Below, piece by piece: positions 5,764 to 55,939 of a DNA stretch of 55,939 bases. The notes below the pieces were generated by a model. It saw only the letters and a list, made by a program, of their open reading frames with translations, had not been told where the DNA came from and searched no databases. Position numbers and translations under genes: made by a program. Numbering within the stretch: position 1 is the first letter of the stretch; each line of letters begins with the position of its first letter. The DNA comes from a virus (Duplodnaviria > Heunggongvirae > Uroviricota > Caudoviricetes), in IMG/VR virus record IMGVR_UViG_2698536620_000014, one strand, 5' to 3'.

Positions 5764-5837
5764 GTTTTTCTCCTTAATTAAGGTTGAGCGAATACCTGCC
5801 ATTTCTGGCATAAATTCAGTTTCGAATAGTCAATTAA

Positions 5838-7311: not shown

Positions 7312-7321
7312 TTTGCGAATC

Positions 7322-7456
7322 TCACATCTTGTTGCTGTGTATAGCGACTTCTGCCTGCCAGAGATCCCAGTCGTTGCTGCGTAAAGCCTGCACAGCCTGG
7401 TTGTAAGTGATACCGCAACAATCCATCAAATACTGAACTACTTCGTAATGCACCAT
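7322..7456 (-). CDS. ydaG: YdaG-like small protein, 44 aa
   Basis: ATG at 7454-7456 preceded by GGGGAGAG; product MVHYEVVQYLMDCCGITYNQAVQALRSNDWDLWQAEVAIHSNKM. Confidence 0.55.
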   Translation of the reverse strand: MVHYEVVQYLMDCCGITYNQAVQALRSNDWDLWQAEVAIHSNKM

Positions 7457-7746
7457 CTTATCTCTCCCCTTAACGCCGGGTGGCGGAACTGAAACCTGCT
7501 GCACTGCAAAATCTGAACCCTGCCGTCATGTTCATACGCCTCGGGCTGGCTACTTAACCCCTGACCACTGCCTGGTAACTCGAAGTATTGCCCTGCGTTC
7601 TGTGGGGCGGGGTGGGTTGGTAGGTATATAATGTACTTTGTGTTCATTGATGTAAAGTACTATAAGTACATTTTGTGTGTAAAAAAATGAGATGGGATAA
7701 AGTGAAGCACAAACCCGGAGGGGGACGCTACCGGATTTATGCTGGT

Positions 7747-8184
7747 TTAAGAGGCTTTTTGTTTTTTCTTTCGTGCTAGCTCTTCGTAAATTGCATTGTA
7801 CTTCTGTTTTTTCTCCTCAAGAGTTTTTAAAAGTTCATCTGTCTCACTGTCAGGGAGCTCGTCCAGAAGGTCAATGATGATTTTTTGTCTTGGATTTAAC
7901 TCCTGATAGAAACGTACCTGTCCACTTTCTTCTGTATCCTCTCCCAAAAGATAGGTTGGTGTTGTTCCAATGAGTGTTGCTAATTCCCTTAATTTCTCTC
8001 GGCGAGGAATTGTTTCGCCATTAAACCATTTGCTAACCGCTTTTGGTGTTAATTTCATTCGACGGGCAATTTCTGCCTGCCTTCCATGTTGTTCATAACC
8101 AGCGTTTTCACAGGCTAGCGCAAGCCTACTGGCGAACTCTTTACGCGCTTTATCTTCATGAACCATAAGTTCAATGATATTCAC
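7747..8184 (-). CDS. racR: RacR prophage repressor (HTH, XRE-like)
   Basis: HTH-like segment GRQAEIARRMKLTPKAVSKWFNGETIP; divergent from ydaS-ydaT. Start uncertain: GTG 8184 or ATG 8166; an in-frame stop lies just upstream. Confidence 0.8.
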   Translation of the reverse strand: MNIIELMVHEDKARKEFASRLALACENAGYEQHGRQAEIARRMKLTPKAVSKWFNGETIPRREKLRELATLIGTTPTYLLGEDTEESGQVRFYQELNPRQKIIIDLLDELPDSETDELLKTLEEKKQKYNAIYEELARKKKQKAS

Positions 8185-8245
8185 TCTTGAATGTACTGTC
8201 AGTTCTGTTATAGCATGTACTCAAAGTTCACATTGTGAGGGTGAT
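8185..8245. promoter_or_regulatory. racR / ydaS divergent promoter-operator region
   Basis: 61-bp intergenic region between divergent racR and ydaS with repeated TGTACT motifs (aatgtactgtcag ... catgtactcaaag). Confidence 0.4.
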
Positions 8246-8500
8246 ATGAACCAGAAAACACTTGAAGATGTAATCAAAACTGTTCGCGTTTCTGTTGTGG
8301 CCGACGTTTGTGGTGTCAGCCAAAGAGCAATCTACAAATGGATGGATAACGGAAAATTGCCTCGCACAGAATATACCGGCGAAACAAATTACGCTGAAAA
8401 AATCGCTCATGCATCAAACGGATTATTTTCTGCTGATGTAATTTTAACTATTGGCAGAAATAAAACTACTACGAAAAAGCTGATGGGAGTTGATTCATGA
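8246..8500 (+). CDS. ydaS: YdaS-like HTH protein
   Basis: ATG at 8246 after GTGAGGGTGAT; product MNQKTLEDVIKTVRVSVVADVCGVSQRAIYKWMDNG... The track's upstream ATG at 8174 would overlap the racR start. Confidence 0.7.
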   Translation: MNQKTLEDVIKTVRVSVVADVCGVSQRAIYKWMDNGKLPRTEYTGETNYAEKIAHASNGLFSADVILTIGRNKTTTKKLMGVDS

Positions 8501-8919
8501 AAATCAAGCATGAGCACATCGAGTCAGTGTTGTTAGCCCTGGCAGCCGAAAAAGGGCAGGCATGGGTAGCCAATGCCATTACTGAAGAATATCTGCGCCA
8601 GGGGGGCGGCGAATTGCCCCTGGTACCAGGCAAGGACTGGAATAATCAGCAGAATATCTATCACCGTTGGTTGAAAGGTGAAACGAAAACGCAAAGAGAA
8701 AAAATTCAGAAGCTGATCCCAGCAATTCTGGCAATCCTTCCGCGCGAGCTGCGTCACCGACTCTGCATCTTCGATACCCTGGAACGCCGTGCATTACTGG
8801 CGGCGCAGGAAGCGTTAAGTACGGCAATTGATGCGCATGATGATGCAGTCCAAGCCGTTTACCGGAAAGCGCATTTCAGCGGCGGCGGGTCTTCCGACGA
8901 TTCTGTCATTGTTCATTAA
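8497..8919 (+). CDS. ydaT: YdaT-like protein, 140 aa
   Basis: 140-aa ORF coupled to ydaS by ATGA overlap; same size and position as K-12 YdaT. Confidence 0.8.
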   Translation: MKIKHEHIESVLLALAAEKGQAWVANAITEEYLRQGGGELPLVPGKDWNNQQNIYHRWLKGETKTQREKIQKLIPAILAILPRELRHRLCIFDTLERRALLAAQEALSTAIDAHDDAVQAVYRKAHFSGGGSSDDSVIVH

Positions 8920-11758: not shown

Positions 11759-11896
11759 ACGTTACTAGATCAAAGAGCATTAGTTCATATGTAAATTGAC
11801 ATTTTTCTGGCACAGGGGAGAGCTAGCGTGGTTGTCCGCTTTGTGCCAATAGCGGACATTGCTGGCTCATGGTATGTTAGTTTAAGGAGGCAGGTT

Positions 11897-12919
11897 ATGC
11901 CCTGTATTTCGCTGTGGTATAATAGTTGCGCAATTGATACAAGGGAGCGTTACATCGTGAAAATTGTTTTCGAGGTTAATGGAAAGAAAGTTCCACTAAA
12001 ATCTTTAAAATACATAAGCAAAAAAGATCAACTCGAAGTAATGAAAAACTGGTTCTTTGAAAACTTTGAAGATCCGGCAAATGCTTGTCCGTATGAAAGT
12101 AGAGAAGGTGGCTATGCTTACATATATGGCGGGCCGTATGATGCGAGCGAAGAACTACAATCCATCTTCGGTCAATATGTTAAATCTGAGTATATTGAGG
12201 AATTAGTAGATGAATTACAAACACAATGTTTTGACTGGTCTGGAAACTCAAATAATATAGATGATTGGTACGATGATGATATCTACGACGCTGTAACGTC
12301 TTCCGGTAATCCGTATTTAAAATTCATTGATAATATCGATAAAATAAAAAAACTTGCAAAAGATAAAACTGAACAACAGCAAAAAAACCACTTGCTTAGT
12401 TTGCTCTACACGAATGTTATTACAGCTTTGGAAACGCTTTATGTTGAGCTATTCATTAATTCTATAGAGAAAGATGATGTCTACATAGCCAATTGTATAG
12501 AAAAAGGTAAGACTGAATTTAAAGTAAGCAAAGATATTGCTGCGTTGCCTTTCAAGGGTGAACCCATCGAGAAAATTAGGGGAGAGCTAATCAGGTCAAT
12601 CAAGGAACACTTGATCAGTGCAAGCTGGCATAGCACTAAAAAGGTAATCGACCGCTATGAAGCTACATTCGATATAAAAGTACAAAAAGACTGTCCGATA
12701 GAAGCTATTGAATTGGCAACCCTCAATCGAAATCACTTAGTGCATCGTGGTGGAAAGGATAAAGAAGGGAACCTCGTAGTGATTACAGACCAGGATCTTG
12801 AAACGCTGATTGAAAATGCATCGAACCTGGCAATTATGCTCTACAACAGTTTAAATGTAGCAACGAATAAAACCACCATTTTGCAACCAGATGACAAACC
12901 GTTCATTCATGAATTTTAA
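11897..12919 (+). CDS. Hypothetical protein with C-terminal HEPN-like R-x4-H motif (candidate RNase toxin); AT-rich
   Basis: ATG 11897 with AAGGAGG 6 nt upstream; alternative in-frame GTG 11957 with AAGGGAG. C-terminal ATLNRNHLVHRGG matches the HEPN RNxxxH signature. Coding region visibly AT-rich against GC-richer flanks. Confidence 0.6.
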   Translation: MPCISLWYNSCAIDTRERYIVKIVFEVNGKKVPLKSLKYISKKDQLEVMKNWFFENFEDPANACPYESREGGYAYIYGGPYDASEELQSIFGQYVKSEYIEELVDELQTQCFDWSGNSNNIDDWYDDDIYDAVTSSGNPYLKFIDNIDKIKKLAKDKTEQQQKNHLLSLLYTNVITALETLYVELFINSIEKDDVYIANCIEKGKTEFKVSKDIAALPFKGEPIEKIRGELIRSIKEHLISASWHSTKKVIDRYEATFDIKVQKDCPIEAIELATLNRNHLVHRGGKDKEGNLVVITDQDLETLIENASNLAIMLYNSLNVATNKTTILQPDDKPFIHEF

Positions 12920-12934
12920 TAGCGCAGGTCATAC

Positions 12935-13936
12935 ATGGATATTCGCACACGAAAGACAAAATTTTTAGAGTCGTTAGATTCAACTGAAGTGATACGCAAA
13001 GCAGTAAGTCTCGCTATAGATTGCATTATTGATAATCATAATAGTAATGAAGATACCCCCTTAGTTATTACCAGCTATGATGATCTCTGTAGAATCCAGG
13101 TGCTAAATTATGTACAGGAGTTTTGCGAAGCTGCATTCCCTGATATGGATGAATATTACTTTAGTCCTAACATACTTCGCATCAACGGCAAGACTAGTGA
13201 AGAAGCTTGTATTAACTTAATTAAACTCTTAAGAAGTACAAAAGGCATGCTATTCTGGTCCGATGCCCCATCGTGGTTCGCTAGCCTCCCCGACGGATTA
13301 TTCCATGTTGTTAACATTGATCAAAAAATCGTTACTCGCGGCCTTAATAAGAAAAACTCTAAGCCGACAATAATCAATAAAGATTACAGTGTAGATACAC
13401 TACTATCAGAGCTATTTTTGAATGGCGCACACATGGAGCAACCCAACGTACACAACGTTTCTGAGGGAAACATGAAGTTCTATGATGAATGCCATGCTGG
13501 ATTAATCAGACCAATACCCGCTCCAATAGGCGCGTCATACGATGAAGAGATCACAATTAATTCTCCAGATTGGCAAAAGCTCGCGTGTGTAGCTTTACGC
13601 CGCTATCAGTCGAAGGAATGTCATGACGGAATGCAATGGGATACAACCGATCATGGTTGGACTGATGTAATCGCGTATCCATTCGTCGAAGAAATACAAT
13701 CAATGGATAATAGTGGTTATCGACAATGTTTAGTTGGGCTGGTCACAATAAACAATTCAAATGCAAATTCTCCGTACCTATCTACCGTTTGGATACATCC
13801 ATTTTATCGCAGGAGAGGGTTATTAAGTAAGTTATGGCCAAAATTACAAGAGTTATATGGAAGTAACTTCGAAATTGAGCGACCTAATGAAAATATGAAA
13901 GCATTTCTGAAAAGTGCGAAACACGCAGATTACTAA
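12935..13936 (+). CDS. Hypothetical protein with C-terminal GNAT-like acetyltransferase motif; AT-rich
   Basis: 333-aa ORF 15 nt after the previous gene; C-terminal VWIHPFYRRRGLLSKLWPKL resembles GNAT motif A; N-terminal about 200 aa has no motif I recognise. Confidence 0.6.
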   Translation: MDIRTRKTKFLESLDSTEVIRKAVSLAIDCIIDNHNSNEDTPLVITSYDDLCRIQVLNYVQEFCEAAFPDMDEYYFSPNILRINGKTSEEACINLIKLLRSTKGMLFWSDAPSWFASLPDGLFHVVNIDQKIVTRGLNKKNSKPTIINKDYSVDTLLSELFLNGAHMEQPNVHNVSEGNMKFYDECHAGLIRPIPAPIGASYDEEITINSPDWQKLACVALRRYQSKECHDGMQWDTTDHGWTDVIAYPFVEEIQSMDNSGYRQCLVGLVTINNSNANSPYLSTVWIHPFYRRRGLLSKLWPKLQELYGSNFEIERPNENMKAFLKSAKHADY

Positions 13937-14556
13937 TTTATGAATCAGTCTGTGGAGTTAGGGTTGGTGTGAACAAGTAGGGTAAGAGCCTCAACGTGAT
14001 GCTATGCCGACCTGCTCCCTGAGAATTCACACAGAAGGCTGCTAGCAATGTCTGCAGATCGCTCAAAGCGGACTAAAATGTTGGCTTGTTTCTGACTTAG
14101 AGCATTTAAGGAAGTGCTGGTGGTGACTGGTTGTTGTGTTCCATTTCTACAGAATAAAATCACAGAAACTATACCCAATAGTTGTATTGAATCACTGACG
14201 AGACAGCCTCATATTTATCAGGACTGGTGTGCGTCTAATACAGGGGGTTGTCGTGCTGGTTCTCAAATGTGCGCTGGCTATTGCGGCTGTAATGGCAATT
14301 TATTGTCTTGCTGTTGTTCTTATGGAGCGGCTTTCTGATTGATTACATACTGGCTAGAAAAAAGGTGTTACCTTGGTTTATCTTTGTCCGGCAAGGTGCG
14401 CTCATTAATCTTAAGTAAATTTATTGCTCAAGTATTCAGATTACTTCTTATGGTTGAAGTCTCCTGTCAATGTAGAACCAATATATTTACAAAAATGAGA
14501 CCCGTCGGGGATAGCCCTGCCGGGTCTGACTGTTAAAGCATTTTTAATATGATCAT

Positions 14557-14895
14557 CTATTTTTTGGTGCTATAGACTTTTTCGCCCGAAAAGTCTGGAG
14601 CGACCCAAAAGTTAATATTAAACTGAGCATCATCGCTTAGTTCAACACGGTGCCAGTATTGTGGTGGGCTTGTTGCAAAAGCGCCAGCATTAATGACTAC
14701 TTTTATCTCCGGTTCAGTAGCATTCTCATCAGTAAAACCATAATATGTTACAGTGCCTTCCATTACGCACAACTGCCCAAAAACACCTGCTGCTGTATTA
14801 TGATGTGTTAATAACGCTGAAGGTACGTTCTCTTTTGTGAAGAACGGAGTTGAGCGTTTGATTACCCAATCTTTAGGAATTCTCTTGTGTGTCAT
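14557..14895 (-). CDS. Hypothetical protein, 112 aa
   Basis: ATG at 14893-14895 preceded by GGAGGAGGTGG; convergent with the AT-rich cassette; hairpin plus T-run downstream on the minus strand (about 14495-14525). Confidence 0.6.
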   Translation of the reverse strand: MTHKRIPKDWVIKRSTPFFTKENVPSALLTHHNTAAGVFGQLCVMEGTVTYYGFTDENATEPEIKVVINAGAFATSPPQYWHRVELSDDAQFNINFWVAPDFSGEKVYSTKK

Positions 14896-15708
14896 AACCA
14901 CCTCCTCCAAAACATGCATTAAAAATGCATCTTTTGGAGGGTTATGTCAAGCTGTTATGAAACACATAATTGATATGTTGATTAGAGGAGAAGATAGAAT
15001 AAATATGGTTGTTTTTCGTATAACTATTTGTTTTACTTTTAGTTTATGCATTCTGTGTGTTAGGAATAAGTTATTAAAGTTTAATCAAAAAATCTCGATG
15101 TAGTCCACATAGATTACTGTTACTGAACCTTATTGTGTGTATTAGTTGTGTTCTGAAATTTCAGCTTAATTATTTATGATGTATTTTTTAACGATAAATA
15201 TTTTCCCAGGATACCTTTACTGTGTATATAAATAAATTATATACGCATAAATAATGTAAAGGCGTCCTTTTAGATATATCTTATCAAATGTTAATGACTT
15301 GAGTGGGAAATATGATTCCAGCAACTTATCATGTGGCTACTTTATAAAAATAATGCCCATATAAAACAACAAGCGAAAAGGATTACGGATAAAAAAGGAG
15401 CGAGATGTGCGAACTTGTTATTTTCCATGTTTAACCACCTTAAATAATTGATGATGACGGGATGATTGCATCTGTAATGCTTTTATTGAAATGTTATGAT
15501 AAAAAAGAACTTTTGCATAACATTAAAATGTAATTTATCTAATCGTTTTTAATAATAAGTGTCGTATTTCTATCCTTGTACCAGCTATTTGATATGTAGT
15601 GTTTGTTCATGCTATGTGGGGCTTTACACCATAGCCAGTTTATTTATACTTTATTCGTCAGCCTGAACAACTGGCATCTGCTGCGCTGCGCCATCGAGAG
15701 ATTGAGAA

Positions 15709-20099: not shown

Positions 20100-20342
20100 N
20101 NNNNNNNNNNNNNNNNNNNNNNNNNNNNNNNNNNNNNNNNNNNNNNNNNNNNNNNNNNNNNNNNNNNNNNNNNNNNNNNNNNNNNNNNNNNNNNNNNNNN
20201 NNNNNNNNNNNNNNNNNNNNNNNNNNNNNNNNNNNNNNNNNNNNNNNNNNNNNNNNNNNNNNNNNNNNNNNNNNNNNNNNNNNNNNNNNNNNNNNNNNNN
20301 NNNNNNNNNNNNNNNNNNNNNNNNNNNNNNNNNNNNNNNNNN
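20100..20342. other. Assembly gap (243 N)
   Basis: Run of N; removes the endolysin 3' end and the Rz/Rz1 5' ends. Confidence 0.99.
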
Positions 20343-44053: not shown

Positions 44054-44697
44054 ATGCGTAAACTTTATGCCGCCATTTTGTCCGCAGCCATTTGTCTGGC
44101 CGTATCCGGTGCGCCTGCATGGGCGTCTGAACATCAGTCCACGCTGAGCGCGGGGTATCTTCATNNNNNNNNNNNNNNNNNNNNNNNNNNNNNNNNNNNN
44201 NNNNNNNNNNNNNNNNNNNNNNNNNNNNNNNNNNNNNNNNNNNNNNNNNNNNNNNNNNNNNNNNNNNNNNNNNNNNNNNNNNNNNNNNNNNNNNNNNNNN
44301 NTTCAGCTATGCAGGAGACAAGAATCGCCAGCTGACCCGTTACAGCGATACCCGCTGGTATGAAGATTCCGTGCGTAACCGCTGGTTCAGCGTGATGGCG
44401 GGGCCGTCTGTGCGCGTGAATGAATGGTTCAGCGCGTATGCGATGGCGGGTGTGGCTTACAGCCGTGTGTCGACTTTTTCCGGGGATTATATCCGCGTAA
44501 CTGACAATAAGGGGAAAACGCACGATGTGCTGACCGGAAGTGATGACGGTCGCCACAGCAACACGTCTCTGGCGTGGGGAGCTGGCGTGCAGTTTAACCC
44601 GACCGAATCCGTGGCCATTGATATTGCTTATGAAGGCTCCGGCAGTGGCGACTGGCGCACTGACGGTTTCATCGTGGGTGTCGGTTATAAATTCTGA
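44054..44697 (+). CDS. lom: Lom/Ail-family outer membrane protein; middle of gene replaced by assembly gap
   Basis: Signal peptide MRKLYAAILSAAICLAVSGAPAWA before the gap; after it, beta-barrel C-terminus ...SGSGDWRTDGFIVGVGYKF closely matching lambda Lom. Confidence 0.7.
44165..44301. other. Assembly gap (137 N) inside lom
   Basis: Run of N. Confidence 0.99.
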
Positions 44698-44724
44698 TTA
44701 GCCAGGTAACACAGTGTTATGACA

Positions 44725-44750
44725 GCCCGCCGGTTCAGGCGGGCTTTTTT
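44725..44750 (+). terminator. Rho-independent terminator after lom
   Basis: gcccgcc-ggttca-ggcgggc hairpin followed by tttttt. Confidence 0.6.
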
Positions 44751-44761
44751 GTGGGGTGAAT

Positions 44762-46542
44762 ATGGCAGTAAAGATTTCAGGTGTACTGAAAGACGGCACA
44801 GGAAAACCGGTACAGAACTGCACAATCCAGCTGAAAGCAAAACGTAACAGCACCACGGTGGTGGTGAACACGCTGGCCTCAGAAAATCCGGATGAAGCCG
44901 GGCGTTACAGCATGGACGTTGAGTACGGTCAGTACAGCGTTATTCTGTTGGTGGAAGGATTCCCGCCGTCACATGCCGGGACCATCACCGTGTATGAAGA
45001 TTCCCGACCCGGTACGCTGAATGATTTTCTCGGTGCCATGACGGAGGATGATGCCCGTCCGGAGGCTCTGCGCCGTTTTGAACTGATGGTGGAAGAGGTG
45101 GCGCGTAACGCGTCCGCGGTGGCACAGAACACGGCAGCCGCGAAGAAGTCAGCCAGTGATGCCGGCACATCTGCCCGTGAGGCGGCAACCCATGCGACTG
45201 ATGCTGCAGGCTCAGCGCGTGCAGCCAGCACGTCAGCCGGACAGGCCGCGACTTCGGCTCAGGAGGCGTCTTCCAGCGCAGGAACGGCATCAACAAAGGC
45301 CACTGAAGCATCAAAAAGTGCTGCCGCTGCAGAGTCCTCAAAAAGCGCGGCGGCCACCAGTGCCGGTGCGGCGAAAACGTCAGAAACGAATGCTGCAGCG
45401 TCACAAAAATCAGCAGCCACTTCTGCATCCACTGCGACAACGAAAGCGTCAGAAGCCGCCACTTCAGCCAGAGATGCGGCGGCCTCCAAAGAGGCGGCAA
45501 AATCATCAGAAACGAACGCCTCCACAAGCGCCAGCAGTGCAGCCTCCTCGGCAACGGCGGCAGGAAATTCCGTGAAGGCGGCAAAAACGTCCGAGACGAA
45601 TGCTAAGTCTTCTGAAACGGCAGCGGAACAGAGCGCCTCAGCTGCGGCAGACTCTGAGACAGCAGCTGCATCATCGGCCCGTGAGGCGTCCATTAAGGCA
45701 GAGGAGGCAGCAGTCAGTGCCACCGCCGCCGGAAAATCGGCAGAAAGCGCCGCATCATCCGCTTCAACAGCCACAACGAAGGCTGGCGAAGCCACTGAAC
45801 AGGCCAGCGCAGCAGCGAGGTCTGCTTCCGCAGCGAAGACATCCGAAACGAACGCGAAAGCGTCGGAAACCAGCGCAGAATCCTCAAAAACGGCTGCCGC
45901 ATCGTCCGCCAGTTCGGCGGCGTCATCGGCATCATCTGCGTCTGCTTCAAAAGATGAGGCGACCAGACAGGCGTCAGCAGCGAGGGGCAGCGCCACGACG
46001 GCATCCACGAAGGCGACAGAGGCTGCTGGCAGTGCGGCAGCGGCAGCACAGAGCAAAAGTACGGCGGAATCCGCGGCAACGCGCGCCGAGACAGCAGCAA
46101 AACGGGCAGAGGATATTGCATCCGCCGTGGCGCTTGAGGATGCGAGCACGACGAAAAAGGGGATAGTACAGCTCAGCAGTGCGACCAACAGCACTTCCGA
46201 GTCACAGGCGGCAACGCCAAAAGCCGTTAAGGCCGCGTATGACCTGGCTAACGGGAAATACACCGCACAGGATGCAACGACAGCACAAAAAGGAATTGTC
46301 CAGCTCAGTAGTGCAACCAACAGCACATCTGAAACGCTTGCTGCGACACCGAAAGCAGTGAAAGCAGCTAATGACAATGCGAATGGTCGGGTACCTTCTG
46401 CCCGTAAGGTGAATGGTAAGGCGCTTTCAGCGGATATAACACTGACGCCGAAAGATATTGGTACGCTTAACTCAACAACAATGTCATTCAGCTATGCAGG
46501 AGACAAGAATCGCCAGCTGACCCGTTACAGCGATACCCGCTG
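44762..46542 (+). other. Side tail fibre gene, diverged 5' copy; reading frame runs into lom-derived sequence and a contig junction
   Basis: ATG 44762; near-identical to the N-terminus of the stf at 46814 for about the first 130 codons, then diverges in the Ala/Ser/Thr repeat region; after ...LNSTTMS (46486) the sequence is the 56-57 nt lom segment also found at 44302-44358, then a single N. Confidence 0.5.
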
Positions 46543-46749
46543 GNTCGCGTAACTGACAACAAGGGGAAAACGCACGATGTGCTGACCGGAAGTGATGACG
46601 GTCGCCACAGCAACACGTCTCTGGCGTGGGGAGCTGGCGTGCAGTTTAACCCGACCGAATCCGTGGCCATTGATATTGCTTATGAAGGCTCCGGCAGTGG
46701 CGACTGGCGCACTGACGGTTTCATCGTGGGTGTCGGTTATAAATTCTGA
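46487..46749 (+). other. Second partial copy of the lom 3' region (contains single-N contig join at 46543)
   Basis: Matches 44302-44358 and 44494-44697 of the first lom copy with at least one substitution; about 136 nt of the first copy is absent at the N. Confidence 0.5.
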
Positions 46750-46776
46750 TTAGCCAGGTAACACAGTGTTATGACA

Positions 46777-46802
46777 GCCCGCCGGTTCAGGCGGGCTTTT
46801 TT
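46777..46802 (+). terminator. Rho-independent terminator (copy of the lom terminator)
   Basis: Same gcccgcc / ggcgggc hairpin plus T-run as at 44725-44750. Confidence 0.6.
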
Positions 46803-46813
46803 GTGGGGTGAAT

Positions 46814-49800
46814 ATGGCAGTAAAGATTTCAGGTGTACTGAAAGACGGCACAGGAAAACCGGTACAGAACTGCACAATCCAGCTGAAAGCAAAACGTAAC
46901 AGCACCACGGTGGTGGTGAACACGCTGGCCTCAGAAAATCCGGATGAAGCCGGGCGTTACAGCATGGACGTTGAGTACGGGCAGTACAGCGTTATTCTGT
47001 TGGTGGAGGGATTCCCGCCGTCACATGCCGGGACCATCACCGTGTATGAAGATTCCCGACCCGGTACGCTGAATGATTTTCTCGGTGCCATGACGGAGGA
47101 TGATGCCCGTCCTGAGGCACTGCGCCGCTTTGAACTGATGGTGGAAGAGGTGGCGCGTAACGCGTCCGCGGTGGCACAGAACACGGCAGCCGCGAAGAAA
47201 TCAGCCAGCGATGCCAGCACATCAGCCCGTGAGGCGGCAACCCGTGCGACTGATGCTGCAGGCTCAGCACGAGCAGCCAGCACGTCAGCCGGACAGGCCG
47301 CTTCGTCGGCTCAGTCTGCGTCTTCCAGCGCAGGAACGGCATCAGCAAAGGCCACTGAAGCATCAAAAAGTGCTGCCGCTGCAGAGTCCTCAAAAAGCGC
47401 GGCGGCCACCAGTGCCGGTGCGGCGAAAACGTCAGAAACGAATGCGGCAGCGTCACAACAATCAGCTGCCACTTCTGCATCCACCGCGACCACGAAAGCG
47501 TCAGAAGCAGCCACCTCAGCCAGAGATGCGTCGGCTTCAAAAGAGGCGGCAAAATTATCAGAAACGAGCGCAGCTTCGAGCGCCAGTAATGCCGCTTCCT
47601 CGGCAACGGCGGCAGGAAATTCCGCGAAGGCGGCAAAGACGTCTGAGACAAACGCTAAGTCCTCTGAAACGGCAGCAGCACAGAGTGCCTCCGCAGCAGC
47701 AGGCTCAAAAACAGCGGCTGCGTCGTCTGCCAGTGCAGCGTCAACAAGTGCCGGGCAGGCCTCAGCCAGTGCTAGCGCCGCCGGAAAATCGGCAGAAAGC
47801 GCCGCATCGTCCGCTTCAACAGCCACAACGAAGGCTGGCGAAGCCACTGAACAGGCCAGTGCAGCAGCGAGGTCTGCTTCCGCAGCGAAGACATCGGAGA
47901 CGAACGCGAAAGCGTCGGAGACCAGCGCAGAATCCTCAAAAACGGCTGCCGCATCGTCCGCCAGTTCGGCGGCGTCATCGGCATCATCGGCGTCTGCTTC
48001 AAAAGATGAGGCGACCAGACAAGCGTCCGCAGCGAAGGGCAGCGCCACGACAGCATCCACGAAGGCGACAGAGGCTGCTGGCAGTGCGACGGCGGCAGCA
48101 CAGAGCAAAAGTACGGCGGAATCCGCGGCAACGCGCGCCGAGACAGCGGCAAAACGTGCAGAGGATATTGCATCCGCCGTGGCGCTTGAGGATGCGAGCA
48201 CGACGAAAAAGGGGATAGTACAGCTCAGTAGTGCGACTAATAGCACGTCTGAAACGCTGGCGGCAACGCCAAAGGCAGTAAAAGCAGCCAATGACAATGC
48301 TGAGAAACGTCTGCAGAAAGACCAGAACGGCGCTGATATACCCGATAAGGGACGCTTCCTGAACAACATTAACGCGGTCAGTAAAACAGACTTTGCTGAT
48401 AAGCGTGGTATGCGTTATGTGCGGGTTAACGCTCCTGCAGGTGCAACATCTGGAAAATATTACCCTGTTGTTGTTATGCGTTCTGCTGGCTCAGTAAGCG
48501 AACTGGCATCAAGGGTCATTATCACCACGGCAACGCGAATCGCAGGCGATCCGATGAATAACTGCGAGTTTAACGGATTTGTTATGCCTGGTGGCTGGAC
48601 TGACAGGGGGCGTTATGCTTATGGAATGTTCTGGCAATATCAAAACAATGAACGAGCCATCCACTCAATAATGATGAGTAATAAGGGCGATGATTTGCGC
48701 TCTGTGTTCTATGTTGATGGCGCTGCTTTCCCTGTTTTTGCGTTTCTCGAAGATGGCCTGTCAATATCCGCACCTGGTGCTGATCTCGTTGTTAATGATA
48801 CGACCTATAAGTTTGGGGCAACAAATCCGGCGACTGAATGTATCGCGGCGGACGTTATCCTTGATTTTAAGAGTGGGCGTGGTTTTTATGAGTCTCATTC
48901 GTTAATCGTTAACGATAACTTGTCGTGCAAAAAACTTTTTGCCACAGACGAAATTGTAGCGCGTGGTGGTAATCAGATTCGAATGATAGGTGGGGAGTAT
49001 GGTGCATTATGGCGTAATGATGGCGCTAAAACTTACCTGCTGCTTACCAATCAAGGTGATGTTTATGGTGGCTGGAATACATTAAGACCGTTTGTTATTG
49101 ATAACGCAACCGGCGAACTGGTTATTGGAACCAAACTGTCTGCAAGTCTGAACGGTAACGCATTGACAGCAACAAAGCTGCAAACGCCAAGACTGGTTTC
49201 TGGTGTTGAGTTTGATGGTTCCAAAGATATTACTTTAACCGCCGCGCATGTGGCTGCTTTTGCCAGAAGGGCAACGGATACATATGCCGATGCGGATGGT
49301 GGCGTTCCATGGAATGCCGAATCAGGCGCTTACAATGTCACCCGCTCTGGCAACAGCTATATTCTGGTTAACTTCTATACCGGAGTCGGAAGTTGCCGGA
49401 CCTTGCAGATGAAGGCGCATTACAGAAATGGTGGTCTGTTCTACCGTTCTTCAAGAGACGGTTATGGTTTTGAGGAAGACTGGGCAGAAGTTTATACCTC
49501 GAAAAATCTTCCACCAGAAAGCTACCCAGTCGGTGCACCAATCCCGTGGCCATCAGATACCGTTCCGTCTGGTTATGCCCTGATGCAGGGACAGACTTTT
49601 GACAAATCTGCTTACCCGAAACTTGCAGCCGTTTATCCGTCAGGTGTGATCCCTGATATGCGTGGCTGGACGATTAAGGGCAAACCTGCCAGTGGTCGGG
49701 CCGTATTGTCTCAGGAACAGGACGGCATTAAATCGCATACCCACAGCGCCAGCGCATCCAGTACGGATTTGGGGACGAAAACCACATCGTCGTTTGATTA

Positions 49801-50212
49801 CGGCACTAAATCCACGAATAACACTGGTGCGCATACCCATAGTTTAAGTGGCAGCACGAATGCAGCTGGTAATCACAGCCATAGAGATGGCCGTCGATTT
49901 AACCCCAGTGTTTTTAAAGATACTTATCAATATGGTTATACAAGCTCAGGTCAAAATACCTGGGGTGTACAAGGCTCAGTAGGTATGTCTACGGGGTGGT
50001 TAGCGAATACCAGTACAGATGGTAATCATAGCCACTCACTGTCCGGCACAGCAGCATCTGCAGGTGCACACGCGCATACTGTCGGTATTGGTGCTCATAC
50101 GCACTCCGTTGCGATTGGTTCACATGGACATACCATCACCGTTAACGCTGCGGGTAACGCGGAAAACACCGTCAAAAACATCGCATTTAACTATATTGTG
50201 AGGCTTGCATAA
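46814..50212 (+). CDS. stfR: Side tail fibre protein (StfR-like), about 1132 aa
   Basis: ATG 46814 after GGGGTG; long Ala/Ser/Thr-rich repeat region; His-rich C-terminus (GAHTHSLSG...GNHSHSLSG...[24 protein letters not shown]) typical of fibre tips; followed by tfa. Confidence 0.85.
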
Positions 50213-50796
50213 TGGCATTCAGAATGAGTGAACAACCACGGACCATAAAAATTTATAATCTGCTGACCGGAACTAATGAATTTATTGGTGAAGGTGACGC
50301 ATATATTCCGCCTCATACAGGTCTGCCAGCAAACAGTACCTATATTGCACCGCCAGATATTCCGGCTGGCTTTGTGGCTGTTTTCAACAGTGATGAGGCA
50401 TCGTGGCATCTCGTTGAAGACCATCGGGGTAAAACGGTTTATGACGTAGCGTCAGGGGACGCGTTATTTATTTCTGAACTCGGTCCGTTACCGGAAAATG
50501 TTACCTGGTTATCCCCGGAAGGGGAATATCAGAAGTGGAACGGTACAGCTTGGGTGAAAGATGCAGAAGCAGAAAAACTATTCCGGATCCGGGAGGCGGA
50601 AGAAACAAAAAACAGCCTGATGCAGGTAGCCAGTGAGCATATTGCGCCGCTTCAGGATGCTGCAGATCTGGAAATCGCAACGGAGGAAGAAACCTCGTTG
50701 CTGGAAGCCTGGAAAAAGTATCGGGTGTTGCTGAACCGTGTTGATACATCAACTGCACCTGATATTGAGTGGCCTGCGGTCCCTGTTATGGAGTAA
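50212..50796 (+). CDS. tfaR: Tail fibre assembly protein (Tfa), 194 aa
   Basis: ATGG overlap with the stf stop; size and position of lambdoid Tfa. Confidence 0.85.
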
Positions 50797-50908
50797 TCGT
50801 TTTGTGATATGCCGCAGCAACTTGTCATGGCAGGATACTGCGGCTGATTTGTGAATTTAAATAGTGTGTTTATTGCTTTATATATAAAGGATTTAATGGA
50901 TTACATAT

Positions 50909-52279
50909 CTATGATATCCCTGAAATGTCCTCTTCAAGCTCTTTTACTGATTTCGCAATTTTAAATTTAAATTTTCTCTCTATTTCACTATTGCTAAGTT
51001 TTTTTTCATTCTCTTTCCCTATCCACATAGAAACAATTTCTCGTTTCTGAGATATATGTAGATTGTCAAAGTTAGGTATGTATTTAAAAGTCTCCGCTCT
51101 ACCCCTGCGGAGTTCATAGAAAGTTTTAATCAAAGACTTTGGTTTTATTTCTGATGAAAGGCCGAATCGGCGGATAAGATTATTGATCGTATGATTAACA
51201 GCTCGAAGTTGAGCTGTTGACGTTATTTGTGAGAAGTACGATACCCATCCCAATCGTTTACCTTCAAACACACATCCCGTAATTCTAAGATTTAGTTTCC
51301 ACTGACAATATGCAACAGCTCGTTCTTTATCGCGCTTATTTTTAGCTTGTAGTAGAGCGTGTCTATATGCAGTAAAAATTTTTGCTAAGGATGACTCAAA
51401 TCTAAGAATGCTCTCATGTTTTATCAATAATTCTCGATTTTTTATGTGGTAGCCCAAAAAGTTGAAACTTTCATCCAAGCTGCCTACTTTGGATTTTGAG
51501 TTCTCTTCATTTAATGGATGTGGGTTTAAATTTAATGATTGAAGCTTATCAATGATATGAGAAGCTATTTTTGTTGCTTGATATTTTGGTGTTAAAATAA
51601 GAATGTCATCAACGTATCGCATGTACCATATGTCATGCATTTTATTGATTTCATCATCGAAATTAGATAGTGATATTTCAGCTAAAATGTTTGATATCGC
51701 TAATCCCTGAGGTACTCCTCTGGTATTATTAGGGATACCTTTGCTTCCTGTGGTTCCACTTACAGTAGGCACGATTAATGATGATGTTATTAACTGTCTA
51801 ATTTCTTTTTTTCTAATTTTATTTTTTATTGCATTAATTATCAATTTATGTTCAATTGAAGGATAGAAACTTTTAAGATCTATTTTTGCATATTCAGCAT
51901 ATAGACTGTTGTTTAATGCTTCTTTCAATGAGTCAATTACTGTATGTGGTAGTTTTAATCTGGACTTAGGATATATTTCCGTAAGGCATTCACAGAGAGC
52001 TCTAAGAGTAATTCTGTCCCTAGCAGTTGGTATGGAAATCTGTCTGGGTGTAGAGTTAGCGCCTTTAGATATTAATTTTTCTTTATATGCTGTAAATTTG
52101 TAATTGCCAGAATTAACCTTTTCAAAAATGAAAGTGATCTCATTTTTTATTGTCAAATCAAGTTTTGATGGGCGAATCCGATCTATGCCAATCGCTCCTG
52201 ATTCTTTGATTTTTTCAGAGTATACTTTTAGAAGATTTTTTTTCGAGAATGACTTTTTAAAAATTCTGCTTGCAGTCAT
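50909..52279 (-). CDS. Reverse transcriptase (defence-associated type: retron-like or UG/Abi-like), 456 aa
   Basis: RT motifs in translation: KIDLKSFYPSI, GVPQGLAISNILAEISL, YMRYVDDILIL (YxDD active site), FNFLGYHI. ATG at 52277-52279 lies 23 nt inside the upstream membrane-protein ORF. AT-rich. Confidence 0.85.
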   Translation of the reverse strand: MTASRIFKKSFSKKNLLKVYSEKIKESGAIGIDRIRPSKLDLTIKNEITFIFEKVNSGNYKFTAYKEKLISKGANSTPRQISIPTARDRITLRALCECLTEIYPKSRLKLPHTVIDSLKEALNNSLYAEYAKIDLKSFYPSIEHKLIINAIKNKIRKKEIRQLITSSLIVPTVSGTTGSKGIPNNTRGVPQGLAISNILAEISLSNFDDEINKMHDIWYMRYVDDILILTPKYQATKIASHIIDKLQSLNLNPHPLNEENSKSKVGSLDESFNFLGYHIKNRELLIKHESILRFESSLAKIFTAYRHALLQAKNKRDKERAVAYCQWKLNLRITGCVFEGKRLGWVSYFSQITSTAQLRAVNHTINNLIRRFGLSSEIKPKSLIKTFYELRRGRAETFKYIPNFDNLHISQKREIVSMWIGKENEKKLSNSEIERKFKFKIAKSVKELEEDISGIS

Positions 52280-52808
52280 AGTCAATCCAAAGATATATTA
52301 ATGGGAGTATATAAAGTGCGGCAGTAATAAATATTCGAAGTAATATCCATAAAATAACAATTATTTTTTCTTTTTGTGTGGGGATCCTCGTCTTAAGTCC
52401 AACTTGAGTTACCCTTGAAATTTTATCATCTATGTCACGGTGATTCTCAACCTCATTGAGCAAATTAAAATATTTTTCTTTCTGTTCAAGAGATAACTGT
52501 TGACTGGTGGTAATGTCAAAATAGAGTCGCTGTAGTGCAATATAATTCCTTCTCATGGCTATTGCTCGACCACGAAAATCTAGGTTAGATACGATCAGAG
52601 AAATACCCAGTAGAGCCACTGAAAGTATCGCCGCAACGACATCTGTATTATCTCCTAGAACCTTTGGAAATCGCAACGTTACAATTGAAAGTACCGCACT
52701 CAATATAGCATACCAAACGAGGATAAATTGAGAGTGTTTTTCAAGCCATTCTAGTCGATGGTGCGCTTGGATACGTGCTTTATATGTAAACCAAATATTG
52801 TCATGCAT
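52257..52808 (-). CDS. Multi-pass membrane protein co-transcribed with the RT (candidate effector), 183 aa
   Basis: ATG 52806-52808 after AAGGA; hydrophobic helices LVWYAILSAVLSIVTL, VVAAILSVALLGISLIVSNL and IIVILWILLRIFITAALYILPLIYLW. Confidence 0.7.
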   Translation of the reverse strand: MHDNIWFTYKARIQAHHRLEWLEKHSQFILVWYAILSAVLSIVTLRFPKVLGDNTDVVAAILSVALLGISLIVSNLDFRGRAIAMRRNYIALQRLYFDITTSQQLSLEQKEKYFNLLNEVENHRDIDDKISRVTQVGLKTRIPTQKEKIIVILWILLRIFITAALYILPLIYLWIDYDCKQNF

Positions 52809-53030
52809 AAAAGATCCTTTTTAAAAGCGGAAGGGGCAGGATATATTGGAACCGTTGAACATCCTGCCCGGCAGGATCAGTGAGCATAAGCTCAACAGTA
52901 AAATATTACTGTTCATTATCAGAGCCGCCCTTGCATGCGCAAGAGGAAAAACCTGCCCCATCCCTTTGAATTATTACAATTTAATGATCTTAAAGTCAAT
53001 ACAAGTGAATGGTGTCCAGAGATGATGAAC
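52809..53030 (-). ncRNA. Structured non-coding region upstream of the membrane-protein/RT operon (candidate RT-associated ncRNA or operator)
   Basis: Four copies of a GGGCAGGAT-type arm in alternating orientation (52833-52842, 52861-52869, 52870-52877, 52952-52959) plus a small cttgc-atgc-gcaag hairpin (52930-52943); no ORF. Confidence 0.3.
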
Positions 53031-53279
53031 TTAATGAACAAACCACTCGTCAGCAGACTCCCAGGTATCTTTCAGAGTCTCCTGAACAAAAGTTTTAGCT
53101 GAATCTTTATCAGCGGTGCGCGTAACAGAAAGGCCATCGTTGCTGGTGGCTTTTACGATCACTTCTACATCGTCATAACGTTTACTGATGCGTCGGGTTA
53201 ATTCTTCCTTTAACGCATCCACAGCACCGGTTGGCATTTTAGTCATTTTTTCTTTGGCTATGCAGATTTCAATACGCAT
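53031..53279 (-). CDS. DinI-like protein, 82 aa
   Basis: [35 protein letters not shown]...[17 protein letters not shown] resembles E. coli DinI as I recall it. Confidence 0.8.
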
Positions 53280-53339
53280 AAAAGTCCCCTACACTGTATT
53301 TGTATACAGTATTATTTTTAACTGTATGGATAAACAGTG

Positions 53340-54437
53340 TCAAGAGGTCTTATTTCTGCTCCTTTGGAGTTCTTCAAAACGATTATGTAAAGATTTCGGA
53401 TACAGTTCGGTATATACCTGCCATAGCACGTTTAATGAACGATGCCCTGTAACCTGAGCGACTTCCTCAATACTAAAACCAGCCTCAAATAAGCGACTTG
53501 CCCCTTCTCTACGCAAATCATGGTATCTCAGATCTTTAATACCTAATTTGCTTCTTACCCTCTGAAATCCTGCGGTAACAGAAGTGCTGTTATATGGAAA
53601 AATGAATTCTGATTTTTTGGGTTGTCGCTGGACGATATCCCAGGCTTCCCCAAGCAAGGCAACTTTCATATGGTTGCCTTCCTTTTTACGTGGATCTTTC
53701 CTGTCTCTTACTAGTATAGATTTTTGTTCCTGGTCGAGATCTTCCCATCGTAACCGGCATACTTCTCCGATTCGCATACAGGACCACACAGAAAATTTGA
53801 GGATATCAACGAACGGAATTTTTGAGCATTTATGAGTAGATCGTTGTTGAAGGCCTTCAATGAGCATGTTCAGTTCATCAGATGCTGGTCTACGATTACG
53901 ACGGTTTGATTTACCAATCAAACCGAGTTTAAGTAGATATGGACGAGCGCTTTTCGCCGGGTTTGATGTGTAATTGATTCCGTATACAGGTTTTGCCGCA
54001 TCCAGAACACTGCCAAGATAACTAACATCGTGGCTGACTGTTGCTGGGCCTGCACCAGCGTTGTTTCTTAGCCTGCAATGTTCAATTACGTCATTTTCTG
54101 TCAGTTCAGATAGTTTGATCGCGGAGATGTCACTATCCATAAGCAGTTCCAGCACATATCTTTTAGTACGGCCTGCTTTACCTCCGGCATTTGGGTCATT
54201 TAAATATTTGTGTAGTAAGTCACGGACTGTAAGTCCGTCAACAGCATTTGATGATGGAATGCCATATAGATCTAATTCCATCACTTTCTGTGCGCCCCAT
54301 GTTTTGGCATGAGCATGTTTAGGGAATGTTTTGCTTTCCCTGTAAGTGATAACACCTTTTTCTTTGATAATCACATTACAGCGATAGCGTGGTGTGCCAT
54401 CGGATTTTAGTCGTTTCTCTATGTTATAGTACGCCAT
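53340..54437 (-). CDS. Tyrosine integrase adjacent to dusA (candidate DusA-associated integrase), 365 aa
   Basis: C-terminal catalytic region with HDLRREGASRLFEAGFSIEEVAQVTGHRSLNVLWQVY (H-x-x-R ... Y); divergent from dusA with an 88-bp spacer. Confidence 0.85.
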   Translation of the reverse strand: MAYYNIEKRLKSDGTPRYRCNVIIKEKGVITYRESKTFPKHAHAKTWGAQKVMELDLYGIPSSNAVDGLTVRDLLHKYLNDPNAGGKAGRTKRYVLELLMDSDISAIKLSELTENDVIEHCRLRNNAGAGPATVSHDVSYLGSVLDAAKPVYGINYTSNPAKSARPYLLKLGLIGKSNRRNRRPASDELNMLIEGLQQRSTHKCSKIPFVDILKFSVWSCMRIGEVCRLRWEDLDQEQKSILVRDRKDPRKKEGNHMKVALLGEAWDIVQRQPKKSEFIFPYNSTSVTAGFQRVRSKLGIKDLRYHDLRREGASRLFEAGFSIEEVAQVTGHRSLNVLWQVYTELYPKSLHNRFEELQRSRNKTS

Positions 54438-54456
54438 TACACGACCTCGTTATTTC

Positions 54457-54493
54457 GGGTTCCCATAAAGCGTGGGAACCTGTGCGGGAACCT
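54457..54493. repeat. Inverted and direct GGGAACC repeats in the int-dusA spacer (candidate integrase-binding or att-associated sites)
   Basis: gggttccc (54457-54464) is the inverted partner of gggaacc (54474-54480); gggaacct is directly repeated at 54486-54493. Confidence 0.35.
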
Positions 54494-54525
54494 AACGCGA
54501 GAAAAATAGCCTGAAATGTTCAAAA

Positions 54526-55563
54526 ATGCACGATAATCCTGAAACACAGAAAACTAATCAAACCAGCGTGATGCCTGAAAAAACTGGCGCTTACTGGAGT
54601 TCTCGGTTTAGCATTGCTCCTATGCTCGACTGGACGGACAGACATTGCCGCTATTTCTTGCGTCTGCTTTCCCGCAATACGTTGCTGTATACCGAAATGG
54701 TGACCACAGGGGCGATTATTCACGGTAAAGGTGATTACCTGGCGTACAGTGAAGAAGAACATCCGGTAGCGTTGCAACTCGGCGGTAGCGATCCGGCGGC
54801 GCTGGCACAGTGTGCGAAGCTGGCAGAAGCGCGTGGATATGATGAGATCAACCTGAATGTCGGCTGCCCGTCTGACCGGGTGCAGAACGGCATGTTTGGT
54901 GCGTGTCTGATGGGTAATGCGCAGCTGGTTGCCGACTGCGTGAAAGCGATGCGCGATGTGGTGTCGATTCCAGTGACGGTGAAAACGCGTATTGGCATCG
55001 ATGACCAGGACAGCTATGAATTTCTCTGCGATTTCATCAACACCGTTTCCGGCAAAGGCGAGTGTGAGATGTTTATCATCCACGCACGTAAAGCCTGGCT
55101 TTCGGGGTTAAGCCCGAAAGAAAACCGTGAAATCCCGCCACTCGATTATCCGCGTGTGTATCAACTGAAGCGTGACTTTCCGCATCTGACAATGTCGATT
55201 AACGGTGGTATCAAGTCGCTGGAAGAGGCCAAAGCACACCTGCAACATATGGATGGCGTGATGGTCGGGCGCGAGGCGTATCAGAATCCGGGTATTCTGG
55301 CGGCGGTAGACCGGGAGATCTTTGGTTCCTCGGATACCGATGCCGATCCGGTGGCGGTAGTGCGCGCCATGTATCCGTACATTGAGCGTGAACTCAGCCA
55401 GGGGACGTATCTCGGCCATATTACCCGGCATATGTTGGGCTTGTTCCAGGGTATTCCTGGCGCGCGGCAGTGGCGGCGTTATTTAAGTGAAAATGCCCAT
55501 AAAGCGGGTGCAGACATTAATGTGCTGGAACACGCGCTCAAACTGGTGGCGGATAAGCGTTAA
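54526..55563 (+). CDS. dusA: tRNA-dihydrouridine synthase A, 345 aa
   Basis: Dus-family core with [22 protein letters not shown]...[14 protein letters not shown]...; host housekeeping gene. Confidence 0.9.
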
Positions 55564-55696
55564 CTTTTCACCAAAAAGTAGTCAAATTCACCACGCCCTG
55601 CGCACCGTCGCGGGGCGTTTTGCTGTTAAATCAATAGATTATTTTTGGCATGATTCTTGTAATGCCAGCAAGAGATTTCATATTTGGGAGAGCATC

Positions 55697-55939
55697 ATGC
55701 TGGAACTACTTTTTGTGATTGGCTTTTTTGTCATGCTGATGGTCACCGGCGTTTCGTTGCTGGGCATTATCGCCGCGCTGGTTGTGGCGACGGCCATTAT
55801 GTTCCTCGGCGGTATGCTGGCATTGATGATTAAGTTGCTGCCGTGGTTACTACTGGCGATTGCGGTGGTGTGGGTTATTAAGGCGATTAAAGCACCAAAA
55901 GTGCCGAAATATCAGCGTTATGACCGCTGGCGTTACTAA
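55697..55939 (+). CDS. pspG: Phage shock protein G, 80 aa
   Basis: ATG 55697 after GGGAGAG; MLELLFVIGFFVMLMVTGVSLLGIIAALVV... small inner-membrane protein downstream of dusA, as in K-12. Confidence 0.85.
   Translation: MLELLFVIGFFVMLMVTGVSLLGIIAALVVATAIMFLGGMLALMIKLLPWLLLAIAVVWVIKAIKAPKVPKYQRYDRWRY

Follow-up and report, generated by a model that had tools for sequence, protein, structure and literature searches.

What does the tyrosine integrase gene beside dusA belong to? In the viral record IMGVR_UViG_2698536620_000014, a stretch of 55,939 nt that is referred to here as the window, a 365-amino acid integrase is encoded at 53340-54437 (minus strand; Pfam Phage_integrase), divergent from dusA at 54526-55563 (plus strand; Pfam Dus, E = 8e-105), with pspG as the next gene downstream. 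An 88-bp spacer (54438-54525) separates the two genes. On the other side of the integrase gene lie a DinI-like gene, genes for a SLATT-type membrane protein and a reverse transcriptase (RT), and, 3.7 kb away, the tail-fibre assembly gene tfa. The left edge of the window carries another integrase gene, intR, of Rac type (1-1236, minus strand). A preliminary description had placed both integrase genes in these positions, where we also found them, and had left open whether the right end of the window is a minimal dusA-integrated island, the right arm of a larger dusA-integrated phage, or one of two loci joined by scaffolding. The last two proposals both turned out to be right. We put at roughly 90% the probability that window 46546-55939 is the attR-proximal arm of a lambdoid prophage of ∼44 kb integrated in the 5′ end of dusA, and that window 1-44164 was joined to it by scaffolding. 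The evidence consists of collinearity with complete genomes, the anatomy of the attachment (att) sites, family assignments, and the covariation of RNA and motifs.

Collinearity with dusA prophages in complete genomes

Window 46546-55939 aligned with the right arm of the dusA prophage of strain CDF6 as one high-scoring segment pair of 9394 bp at 98.9% identity. The aligned segment begins with the 3′ part of lom followed by stf and tfa (46546-50796, plus strand), with the tail-fibre gene stf at 46808-50212 and tfa at 50212-50796, both on the plus strand. Since all of this falls in a single alignment to the CDF6 prophage, we assign the lom fragment, stf and tfa on the last contig to the dusA phage and not to the phage on the left. 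The terminal 5.1 kb (50797-55939) was found at ≥99% identity in 57 of 5426 complete Escherichia coli genomes.

We inspected the dusA locus in four genomes (CDF6, 6409, A14 and O25b:H4) and the far end of the prophage in three of them (CDF6, A14 and O25b:H4). All four showed the order tail genes, tfa, RT, SLATT, DinI, int and then dusA, directly after the J-lom-stf-tfa genes of a lambdoid prophage. The far end lies beside zur and carries genes of the Panacea and PrtN families. In CDF6 and A14 the PGAP annotation also has a fragment of the 5′ end of dusA at this place, a pseudogene labelled ‘tRNA-dihydrouridine synthase, missing C-terminus’. The length of the prophage, taken as the distance from one core to the other, is 44,433 bp in A14 and 44,430 bp in CDF6. 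An exact-string search for the att cores at the O25b:H4 locus found none, presumably because of single-nucleotide polymorphisms, and the prophage of this strain was assigned from its annotation only. Just inside attL, and beyond the window, a Panacea-domain protein and two small hypothetical proteins are encoded (loci L003, L004 4412-5613, and L096); they may represent cargo of a toxin-antitoxin-like kind at the far end.

Attachment sites and the rebuilt 5′ end of dusA

In order to map the crossover, the empty site of K-12 (attB), the attR of the window and the attL of A14 were compared in a three-way alignment. The A14 attL matches K-12 exactly up to ATGCTCGA and is phage-derived beyond it. 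Conversely, the window is phage-type up to the same 8-bp core (54622-54629, dusA nt 97-104) and then ∼99% K-12-like. The core lies inside a 21-bp imperfect repeat (54622-54642, plus strand), of which 15 of 21 positions are identical between attL and attR, the core itself being identical in the attL of A14 and CDF6. Semi-conserved repeats of this kind, of ∼21 bp, have been described as typical of dusA-specific elements (Farrugia et al. 2015, PMC4482086). The direct repeats that the preliminary description had suggested looking for are thus found as a matching attL core in A14 and CDF6, 44.4 kb away.

The phage-borne part of attR (54438-54621, plus strand) comprises the int-dusA spacer together with a surrogate for the 5′ end of dusA (nt 1-96, codons 1-32); the rest of dusA (54630-55563, plus strand) is host-derived. 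Eighteen mismatches to K-12 fall in nt 1-96, versus 10 in the 934 nt from 105 to 1038, and all 10 amino acid differences between the two DusA proteins lie in residues 3-30, which bears out the earlier suggestion that the N-terminus of DusA is encoded by the element. The phage-borne part is 98.9% identical to attP of phage mEp460 over 190 bp and 73-81% identical to K-12. The mEp460 attP consists of the window sequence to the left of the core (98.9%) and the A14 attL sequence to the right of it, and we regard the reconstruction of the att sites as validated, at the sequence level, by this free phage.

By this anatomy, recombination would occur at the core ATGCTCGA. The phage side of attP would supply the upstream region and the look-alike first 32 codons, so that dusA would remain intact after insertion, and the displaced original 5′ end would stay behind at attL, beside zur, as the pseudogene. 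Excision would require the PrtN-type recombination directionality factor (RDF) encoded near attL in complete copies. A PrtN-type gene is annotated near attL in CDF6, A14, O25b:H4 and mEp460; it is absent from the window, the attL side lying outside. Promoter activity of the dusA upstream region supplied by the element has been shown for a Vibrio element (PMC8409611), and the RdfN excision factor and the restoration of promoter and reading frame were addressed experimentally in the same study (Durand et al. 2021).

Distribution of the RT-SLATT cassette

The RT-SLATT cassette (query 50830-53030) was present in 188 of the 5426 complete E. coli genomes, and in 57 of these 188 it lies at dusA. Three copies located elsewhere were inspected, namely those of CE10, ETEC4067 and p11A. 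The cassette ends a prophage at prfC in CE10 and ETEC4067 and at yecD/aspS in p11A, always in the order tail-fibre genes, RT-SLATT, DinI and host gene, with no integrase alongside in any of the three. At ≥85% identity it was found in none of the sequenced phages of the collection searched; 31 predicted viral contigs carry it. Judging from these positions, the cassette is a portable right-arm moron of lambdoid prophages that is independent of the integrase. In the loci L010 (p11A), L011 and L012, the RT-SLATT genes and DinI form the extreme right end of lambdoid prophages, the integrase not being adjacent. The yecD/aspS prophage of p11A also has a macro-domain gene between stf and tfa.

A minimal dusA-integrated defence island of 3.6 kb, made up of RT, SLATT, DinI and int and independent of the prophage ending at tfa, was the first of the readings proposed earlier. 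The short distance of the integrase from tfa speaks for it, as does the AT-rich, cargo-like character of the cassette, and dusA islands as small as 4.8 kb were reported by Farrugia et al. (PMC4482086). However, there is no dusA 5′ remnant and no att repeat between tfa and the RT gene, and attL lies 44.4 kb off in complete genomes. Moreover, complete phages that have been isolated, mEp460 for example, possess the DinI-int-attP module, and the RT-SLATT genes occupy the same place between tfa and DinI in the prfC and yecD prophages that lack an adjacent int. The island reading fails for the complete genomes examined, and we give it almost no weight. The right arm of a dusA-integrated prophage, with the cassette as a moron within it, is the reading that we carry forward.

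The left prophage and the scaffold join

The window contains runs of N at 20100-20342 and 44165-44301 and a single N at 46544, and is therefore a scaffolded draft. The pieces between them are called A to D here. The left part belongs to a separate prophage of Rac type at the ttcA locus, and intR, whose product has Arm-DNA-bind_2 and Phage_integrase domains, is its integrase gene and lies outside the dusA element. Window 1-6000 (intR-xisR-recT-recE) has 100% matches in many genomes, and window 1-8917 is 99.3% identical to the Rac locus beside ttcA in A14. In that genome 1.85 Mb separate the Rac locus from the dusA locus, and the two are co-oriented. The rest of piece A together with piece B (9598-44164) is collinear, at 99.3-99.95% identity, with the full-length Rac-type prophage of NCTC10444, which ends in a lom-stf-tfaR region of its own, with sitDCBA after it. 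Where the window has the 243-N gap, NCTC10444 has 240 bp, and the 137-N gap inside lom would correspond to 93 bp if piece C continues the same prophage. Piece C (44302-46472) matches NCTC10444 at 96.3% only, and up to 46380 only; its source could be the Rac-type prophage or else a third prophage, likewise lambdoid. An AT-rich block of the Rac-type prophage (11828-15000, 36-41% GC) contains two open reading frames (ORFs) of 363 and 333 amino acids that are annotated as hypothetical proteins in NCTC10444; PADLOC gave no match for four ORFs of this block.

The two parts meet in a tangle at 44165-46545, which consists of the 137-N gap in lom, a contig with partial lom and stf genes (44302-46472), a 71-bp lom fragment (46473-46543) and the single N at 46544. 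The stf gene is broken off at 46472 and followed by the lom fragment, the last 57 bp of which repeat 44302-44358 exactly. After the single N, lom resumes 135 bp further on, the intervening 135 bp being skipped; compared with piece C, piece D has stepped back by 2.05 kb and begins at the position homologous to 44494. The chimeric join at 46472/46473 is itself free of N; there the truncated stf (...TTMSFS) passes in frame into lom (YAGDKNRQ...) through a shared 10-bp sequence, GTCATTCAGC. It looks as if contigs representing repeat nodes were merged by the scaffolder across 44165-46545. A collinear counterpart of 46150-46950 was found in none of the 5426 complete genomes. The misjoin is at 46473-46545, not simply at 44164 where the preliminary description had placed it. 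The simplest reading of the N gaps, the non-collinear join and the match of the left part to a Rac-type prophage at ttcA is scaffolding across the lom/stf repeats that lambdoid prophages share.

We also considered that the window is physically real, a Rac-type left arm having been joined to a dusA right arm by a large tandem duplication or another rearrangement between homologous tails. The two prophages do share tail, lom and stf sequences of ∼94-95% identity that are able to recombine, and a duplication junction in direct orientation would show exactly the order seen in the window. Nevertheless, with the spacing and co-orientation found in A14, such a join could arise only if an arc of 2.9 Mb were lost or 1.87 Mb were duplicated in tandem. 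Nor is the join a clean crossover, given the N gaps, the truncated stf with its 71-bp lom fragment, the 57-bp duplicate and the 135-bp skip. The junction is collinear in no complete genome, and the full-length Rac-type prophage has its own stf-tfaR end. A physical rearrangement is accordingly very improbable in our estimation. Two points nevertheless weigh against the preferred reading, a dusA prophage arm joined to the Rac-type prophage by scaffolding: our assessment of linkage draws on other genomes and on inconsistencies within the window rather than on reads of the source strain, and the left arm of the dusA prophage and its attL lie outside the window. We conclude that scaffolding has merged two or more prophages in the window, and it would consequently be wrong to treat intR, the phage body of 46 kb and int-dusA as parts of a single element.

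The integrase family

Pfam Phage_integrase matches residues 187-346 of the dusA-adjacent integrase. Among 33 homologues, residues R222, H306, R309/R310, H332 and Y342 show either no variation or a conservation of at least 90%. A scan of one genome per species gave 52 relatives at 44-99% identity. Upstream sequence was sufficient in 48 of them, and 34 of these have dusA as their divergent neighbour; they come from more than 20 genera, including Kosakonia, Mixta, Xenorhabdus, Morganella, Proteus, Serratia, Plesiomonas, Shewanella, Idiomarina, Vibrio and Aeromonas. The int-dusA spacer of these relatives is almost always 86-102 bp long and is conserved at about 88-90 bp. Integrase and spacer occur in 729-941 of the 5426 complete E. 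coli genomes, O157:H7 among them. The depositors' note on the integrase gene of mEp460, which is 97% identical, cites INT_Rci cd00796. The integrase thus belongs to the dusA-targeting family and would probably group with its published Rci-like clade. A dedicated family of integrases for dusA had been mentioned in the preliminary description, and the dusA-adjacent relatives, the PrtN-type gene and the replacement of the 5′ end agree with its published definition. About half of the known dusA-specific elements are prophages, which average ∼43 kb (PMC4482086).

General searches were less informative. NCBIfam has no specific model for the integrase and gave only sub-threshold Xer matches; phmmer against the PDB returned only distant XerA/XerC, and PADLOC gave no match for either the integrase or the DinI-like protein.

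A subclade of relatives at 58-64% identity (L031, L033-L035, L037, L038, L041 and L055), mainly from Xenorhabdus and Serratia with one from Pseudomonas, does not lie beside dusA. By their N-terminal sequences, the neighbouring ORFs resemble pgl, upp, pyrD and a DEAD-box helicase gene, which suggests that target switching to the 5′ ends of other genes may have taken place. Like dusA, pyrD encodes a flavin mononucleotide-dependent TIM-barrel enzyme.

Repeats in the int-dusA spacer

The GGGAACC repeats noticed earlier in the spacer are present as three exact copies within 54458-54492, namely at 54458-54464 on the minus strand and at 54474-54480 and 54486-54492 on the plus strand, that is, one inverted copy and two direct copies 12 bp apart. 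They are candidate arm-type integrase (Int) sites in the P arm of attP. Over the whole window the motif is not enriched, with seven exact copies versus 4.8 expected, three of the seven being in the spacer. The clustering is another matter, since ∼0.003 copies are expected per 35-bp stretch compared with the three observed. The spacer copies lie at -165, -148 and -136 bp from the core, and the other arm of attP, as seen in the A14 attL and in mEp460, has two more, TGGGAGCCT and TGGGAACCT, at +51 and +62.

Counted from the int ATG, the layout of the repeats is kept across genera, the inverted copy being at about +20 and the direct copies at about +35 and +47. What varies by lineage is the motif, of which there are at least six sequences (GGGAACC, GGGGTGCT, TGGTGTAC, GGTGTCCT, GGATACC and TGTGACCC). 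A triple of one inverted and two direct 8-mers was found in 24 of 32 spacers, compared with 1.4 expected from shuffled sequences. A conserved layout with a covarying sequence across about 20 genera fits what would be expected of arm-type Int sites.

An AlphaFold model of the integrase (predicted local distance difference test score, pLDDT, of 85) has a three-domain layout like that of lambda Int. The predicted N-domain (residues 1-58, pLDDT 80-93) consists of antiparallel strands 2-10, 16-26 and 29-38 and a helix, 41-58; after it come a flexible linker, a core-binding domain made of helices and then the catalytic domain. Full-length lambda Int is among the best structural matches, over 358-371 columns. 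From the repeats and the model we infer that the repeats are arm-type sites. The integrase would be heterobivalent, as lambda Int is, the N-domain binding the three repeats in the spacer and the two on the other attP arm while the remainder of the protein acts at the core. Several observations count against this assignment. The template modelling scores of the structural matches are low (0.35-0.38) because the domains are oriented differently, no significant Pfam arm-binding domain was detected in the integrase, and the triple repeat was not seen, by the criterion used, in 8 of the 32 spacers. At E ≤ 10, Pfam gave a weak Int_N match (E = 0.033) in the N-terminal half of the integrase and, in the single homologue P0040, a non-significant match to Arm-DNA-bind_4 (E = 0.19).

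Alternatively, the repeats could be operators of another regulator or elements of the divergent int and dusA promoters. They do lie in the divergent promoter region, and the failure to detect an arm-binding Pfam domain fits this explanation, as does the fact that neither Farrugia et al. 2015 (PMC4482086) nor Durand et al. 2021 (PMC8409611) mentions arm sites. A promoter operator, however, would have no need of copies on both arms of attP. Furthermore, the motif covaries with the integrase lineage in a fixed layout, the integrase is the only protein common to dusA elements (PMC4482086), and its predicted N-domain has the strand-strand-strand-helix topology of lambda Int. We consider operators or promoter elements unlikely. 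A more far-reaching proposal, which we offer only tentatively, is that the repeats co-evolve with a previously unrecognized arm-binding domain at the N-terminus of Int, and that Int occupancy might also tune the expression of int and of the rebuilt dusA, because the sites lie where the divergent promoters of int and surrogate dusA are expected. The arm-site architecture offers a simple, testable model of how dusA-specific integrases would recognize attP.

The DRT10 cassette and its candidate RNA

The cassette between tfa and the DinI-like gene (50846-53030, minus strand; left edge approximate) is AT-rich (33-36% GC). Its RT gene (50909-52285, minus strand) encodes a protein with the active-site motif YVDD that matches Pfam RVT_1 and, over positions 1-429 of the 429-position profile, PADLOC RT_UG17 (E = 1.1e-158). 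RefSeq uses the ATG at 52279 in identical loci, which makes the gene 50909-52279 (minus strand). The adjoining gene (52257-52808, minus strand), which overlaps the start of the RT gene by 23 bp, encodes an effector with two transmembrane segments that matches Pfam SLATT_5 (E = 1.3e-28) and PADLOC RTasSLATT (E = 1.5e-56). Proteins nearly identical to both are in the UG17 locus table of Tang et al. (PMC12632851). By these matches the two genes, which the preliminary description had listed as an RT and a membrane protein, are parts of a complete DRT10 system with a UG17-class RT, SLATT, a candidate non-coding RNA (ncRNA) and a putative promoter. DRT10 is an anti-phage system of a UG17 RT, a SLATT protein and an ncRNA upstream of SLATT, in which a loop of the ncRNA is the template for tandem-repeat cDNA whose synthesis is protein-primed; cDNA synthesis and phage defence were shown for three E. 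coli homologues, and a tyrosine recombinase near DRT10 was dispensable for defence (PMC12632851).

The candidate ncRNA, which the preliminary description had also missed, lies in the 222-bp gap upstream of SLATT (fold z-score, -3.8). It would be ∼137 nt long (52827-52963, minus strand), its position and layout agreeing with those of the published DRT10 ncRNA and its ends being inferred. A sigma70-like promoter placed to start it (52970-52999, minus strand; TTGACT-18-AATAAT with a TG extension) is a consensus match only. The predicted structure, all on the minus strand, has a basal stem of 11 bp (52963-52952 with 52840-52829), four stem-loops (SL2, 52947-52925; SL3, 52913-52894; SL4, 52893-52882; SL5, 52877-52861) and, directly after SL5, a 20-nt template loop (52860-52841), GUUCAACGGUUCCAAUAUAU. 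We aligned 11 homologues whose SLATT proteins are 51-100% and RTs 62-100% identical to those of the window, yet which align well in the ncRNA region. RNAalifold gave 35 consensus pairs, eight of them with compensatory changes and almost none broken. With the 5′ end set at 52963, CAAU begins at nt 116, as the A′ element of Eco3DRT10 does. The loop, CAAC-GGUUC-CAAU, predicts a 9-nt cDNA repeat, GAACCGTTG. An 8-nt reading, UUC-AACGG-UUC, was rejected, since only the 9-nt CAA(C/U)...CAAU is kept in diverged homologues and fits the published numbering.

Two results speak against this structure. The minimum free energy (MFE) fold of the window sequence alone pairs its four GGCAGG/CCUGCC strings in another way than the consensus does, and a scan of 50700-54700 against Rfam in E-value mode found neither a DRT10 family nor any other relevant RNA family. 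We preferred the alignment-based structure over the single-sequence MFE because of the covariation; Rfam holds no model with which the DRT10 ncRNA could be confirmed. Apart from two chance miRNA matches, the same scan gave only a partial IS009 match inside tfa.

Close variants of the cassette at prfC (L011 and L012), together with L075, are alleles of more than 97% identity whose loop reads CAAU-GAUUC-CAAU versus CAAC-GGUUC-CAAU here (52841-52860). Closely related cassettes are thus predicted to make different cDNA repeats.

By analogy with the published, nearly identical E. coli systems, this 2.2-kb AT-rich moron, carried between tfa and the DinI gene preceded by an SOS box, would make protein-primed tandem-repeat cDNA from the ncRNA loop and protect the lysogen from other phages. 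The present analysis places a complete DRT10 system, candidate ncRNA included, at exact coordinates.

Other features of the right arm

The DinI-like gene (53031-53279, minus strand; Pfam DinI, E = 1e-19) is probably SOS-induced, because a near-consensus LexA-box-like sequence lies upstream of it. This sequence, CACTGTATTTGTATACAGTA (CTGT-N8-ACAG), is at 53283-53302, between int and the DinI-like gene, and overlaps a promoter annotated at the same position in the mEp460 record. The partial IS009 match in the 3′ end of tfa (50700-50753) is below threshold, with 49.9 bits versus a gathering score of 117, and was clipped by the start of the query range.

Comparison with known systems

All components of the right arm are members of described families and are already known: a dusA prophage with int and att of mEp460 type, a DinI-like gene and DRT10. 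The covarying arm-site architecture with the predicted N-domain is the only item not found in the literature consulted, and is a modest refinement.

With the dusA-specific elements described by Farrugia et al. 2015 (PMC4482086) and Durand et al. 2021 (PMC8409611), the element has in common that a tyrosine recombinase gene diverges from dusA, that insertion is at a semi-conserved repeat in the 5′ end of this gene, that the element brings a replacement 5′ end and promoter, and that a PrtN-type RDF is encoded near the other end. Nothing essential differs; the covarying triple repeat and the predicted arm-binding N-domain are not mentioned in these two papers. Phages mEp460 (NC_019716), Lys8385Vzw, phiSTEC1575-Stx2k, PhiR40_1 and SKA5 have a DinI-int-attP module 97-99% identical to that of the window, in which the surrogate 5′ end of dusA, the core and the five repeat motifs are all included. 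In contrast to the window, they lack an RT-SLATT cassette in the interval from the tail-fibre genes to DinI, and their structural and tail genes may also differ from those of the window prophage.

The dusA prophage-like element of E. coli O157:H7 has the same DinI-int-dusA junction at 98.7% identity. In strain 2-6-2 (L009 3533-5530) this element is degraded and has three DUF1076 genes, which we take to be NleG-type effector genes, in the cargo slot instead of DRT10. The gap between the tail-fibre genes and DinI appears, from these comparisons, to be a hot spot for cargo.

Compared with lambda Int and its attP, the element shares a three-domain integrase, predicted here, and repeated sites on both arms around a short core. 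It differs in that the N-domain has no detectable sequence similarity to that of lambda Int, the target is inside a protein-coding gene whose 5′ end is replaced, and the RDF is of PrtN type and not Xis.

The DRT10/UG17 systems of Tang et al. 2025 (PMC12632851) and Sanchez-Nieto et al. 2026 (bioRxiv 10.64898/2026.04.29.721553) have the same ncRNA-SLATT-RT order with overlapping SLATT and RT genes (the UG17-A arrangement), a UG17 RT with YVDD, and an ncRNA of ∼137 nt that is built of a basal stem, internal stem-loops and, following the last of these, a template loop. CAAU, the A′ motif, occupies nt 116-119 here, as it does in Eco3DRT10. Position 110, however, is C in the window, so that the homology between A and A′ would be 3 nt versus 4 nt, and the predicted repeat, GAACCGTTG, differs.

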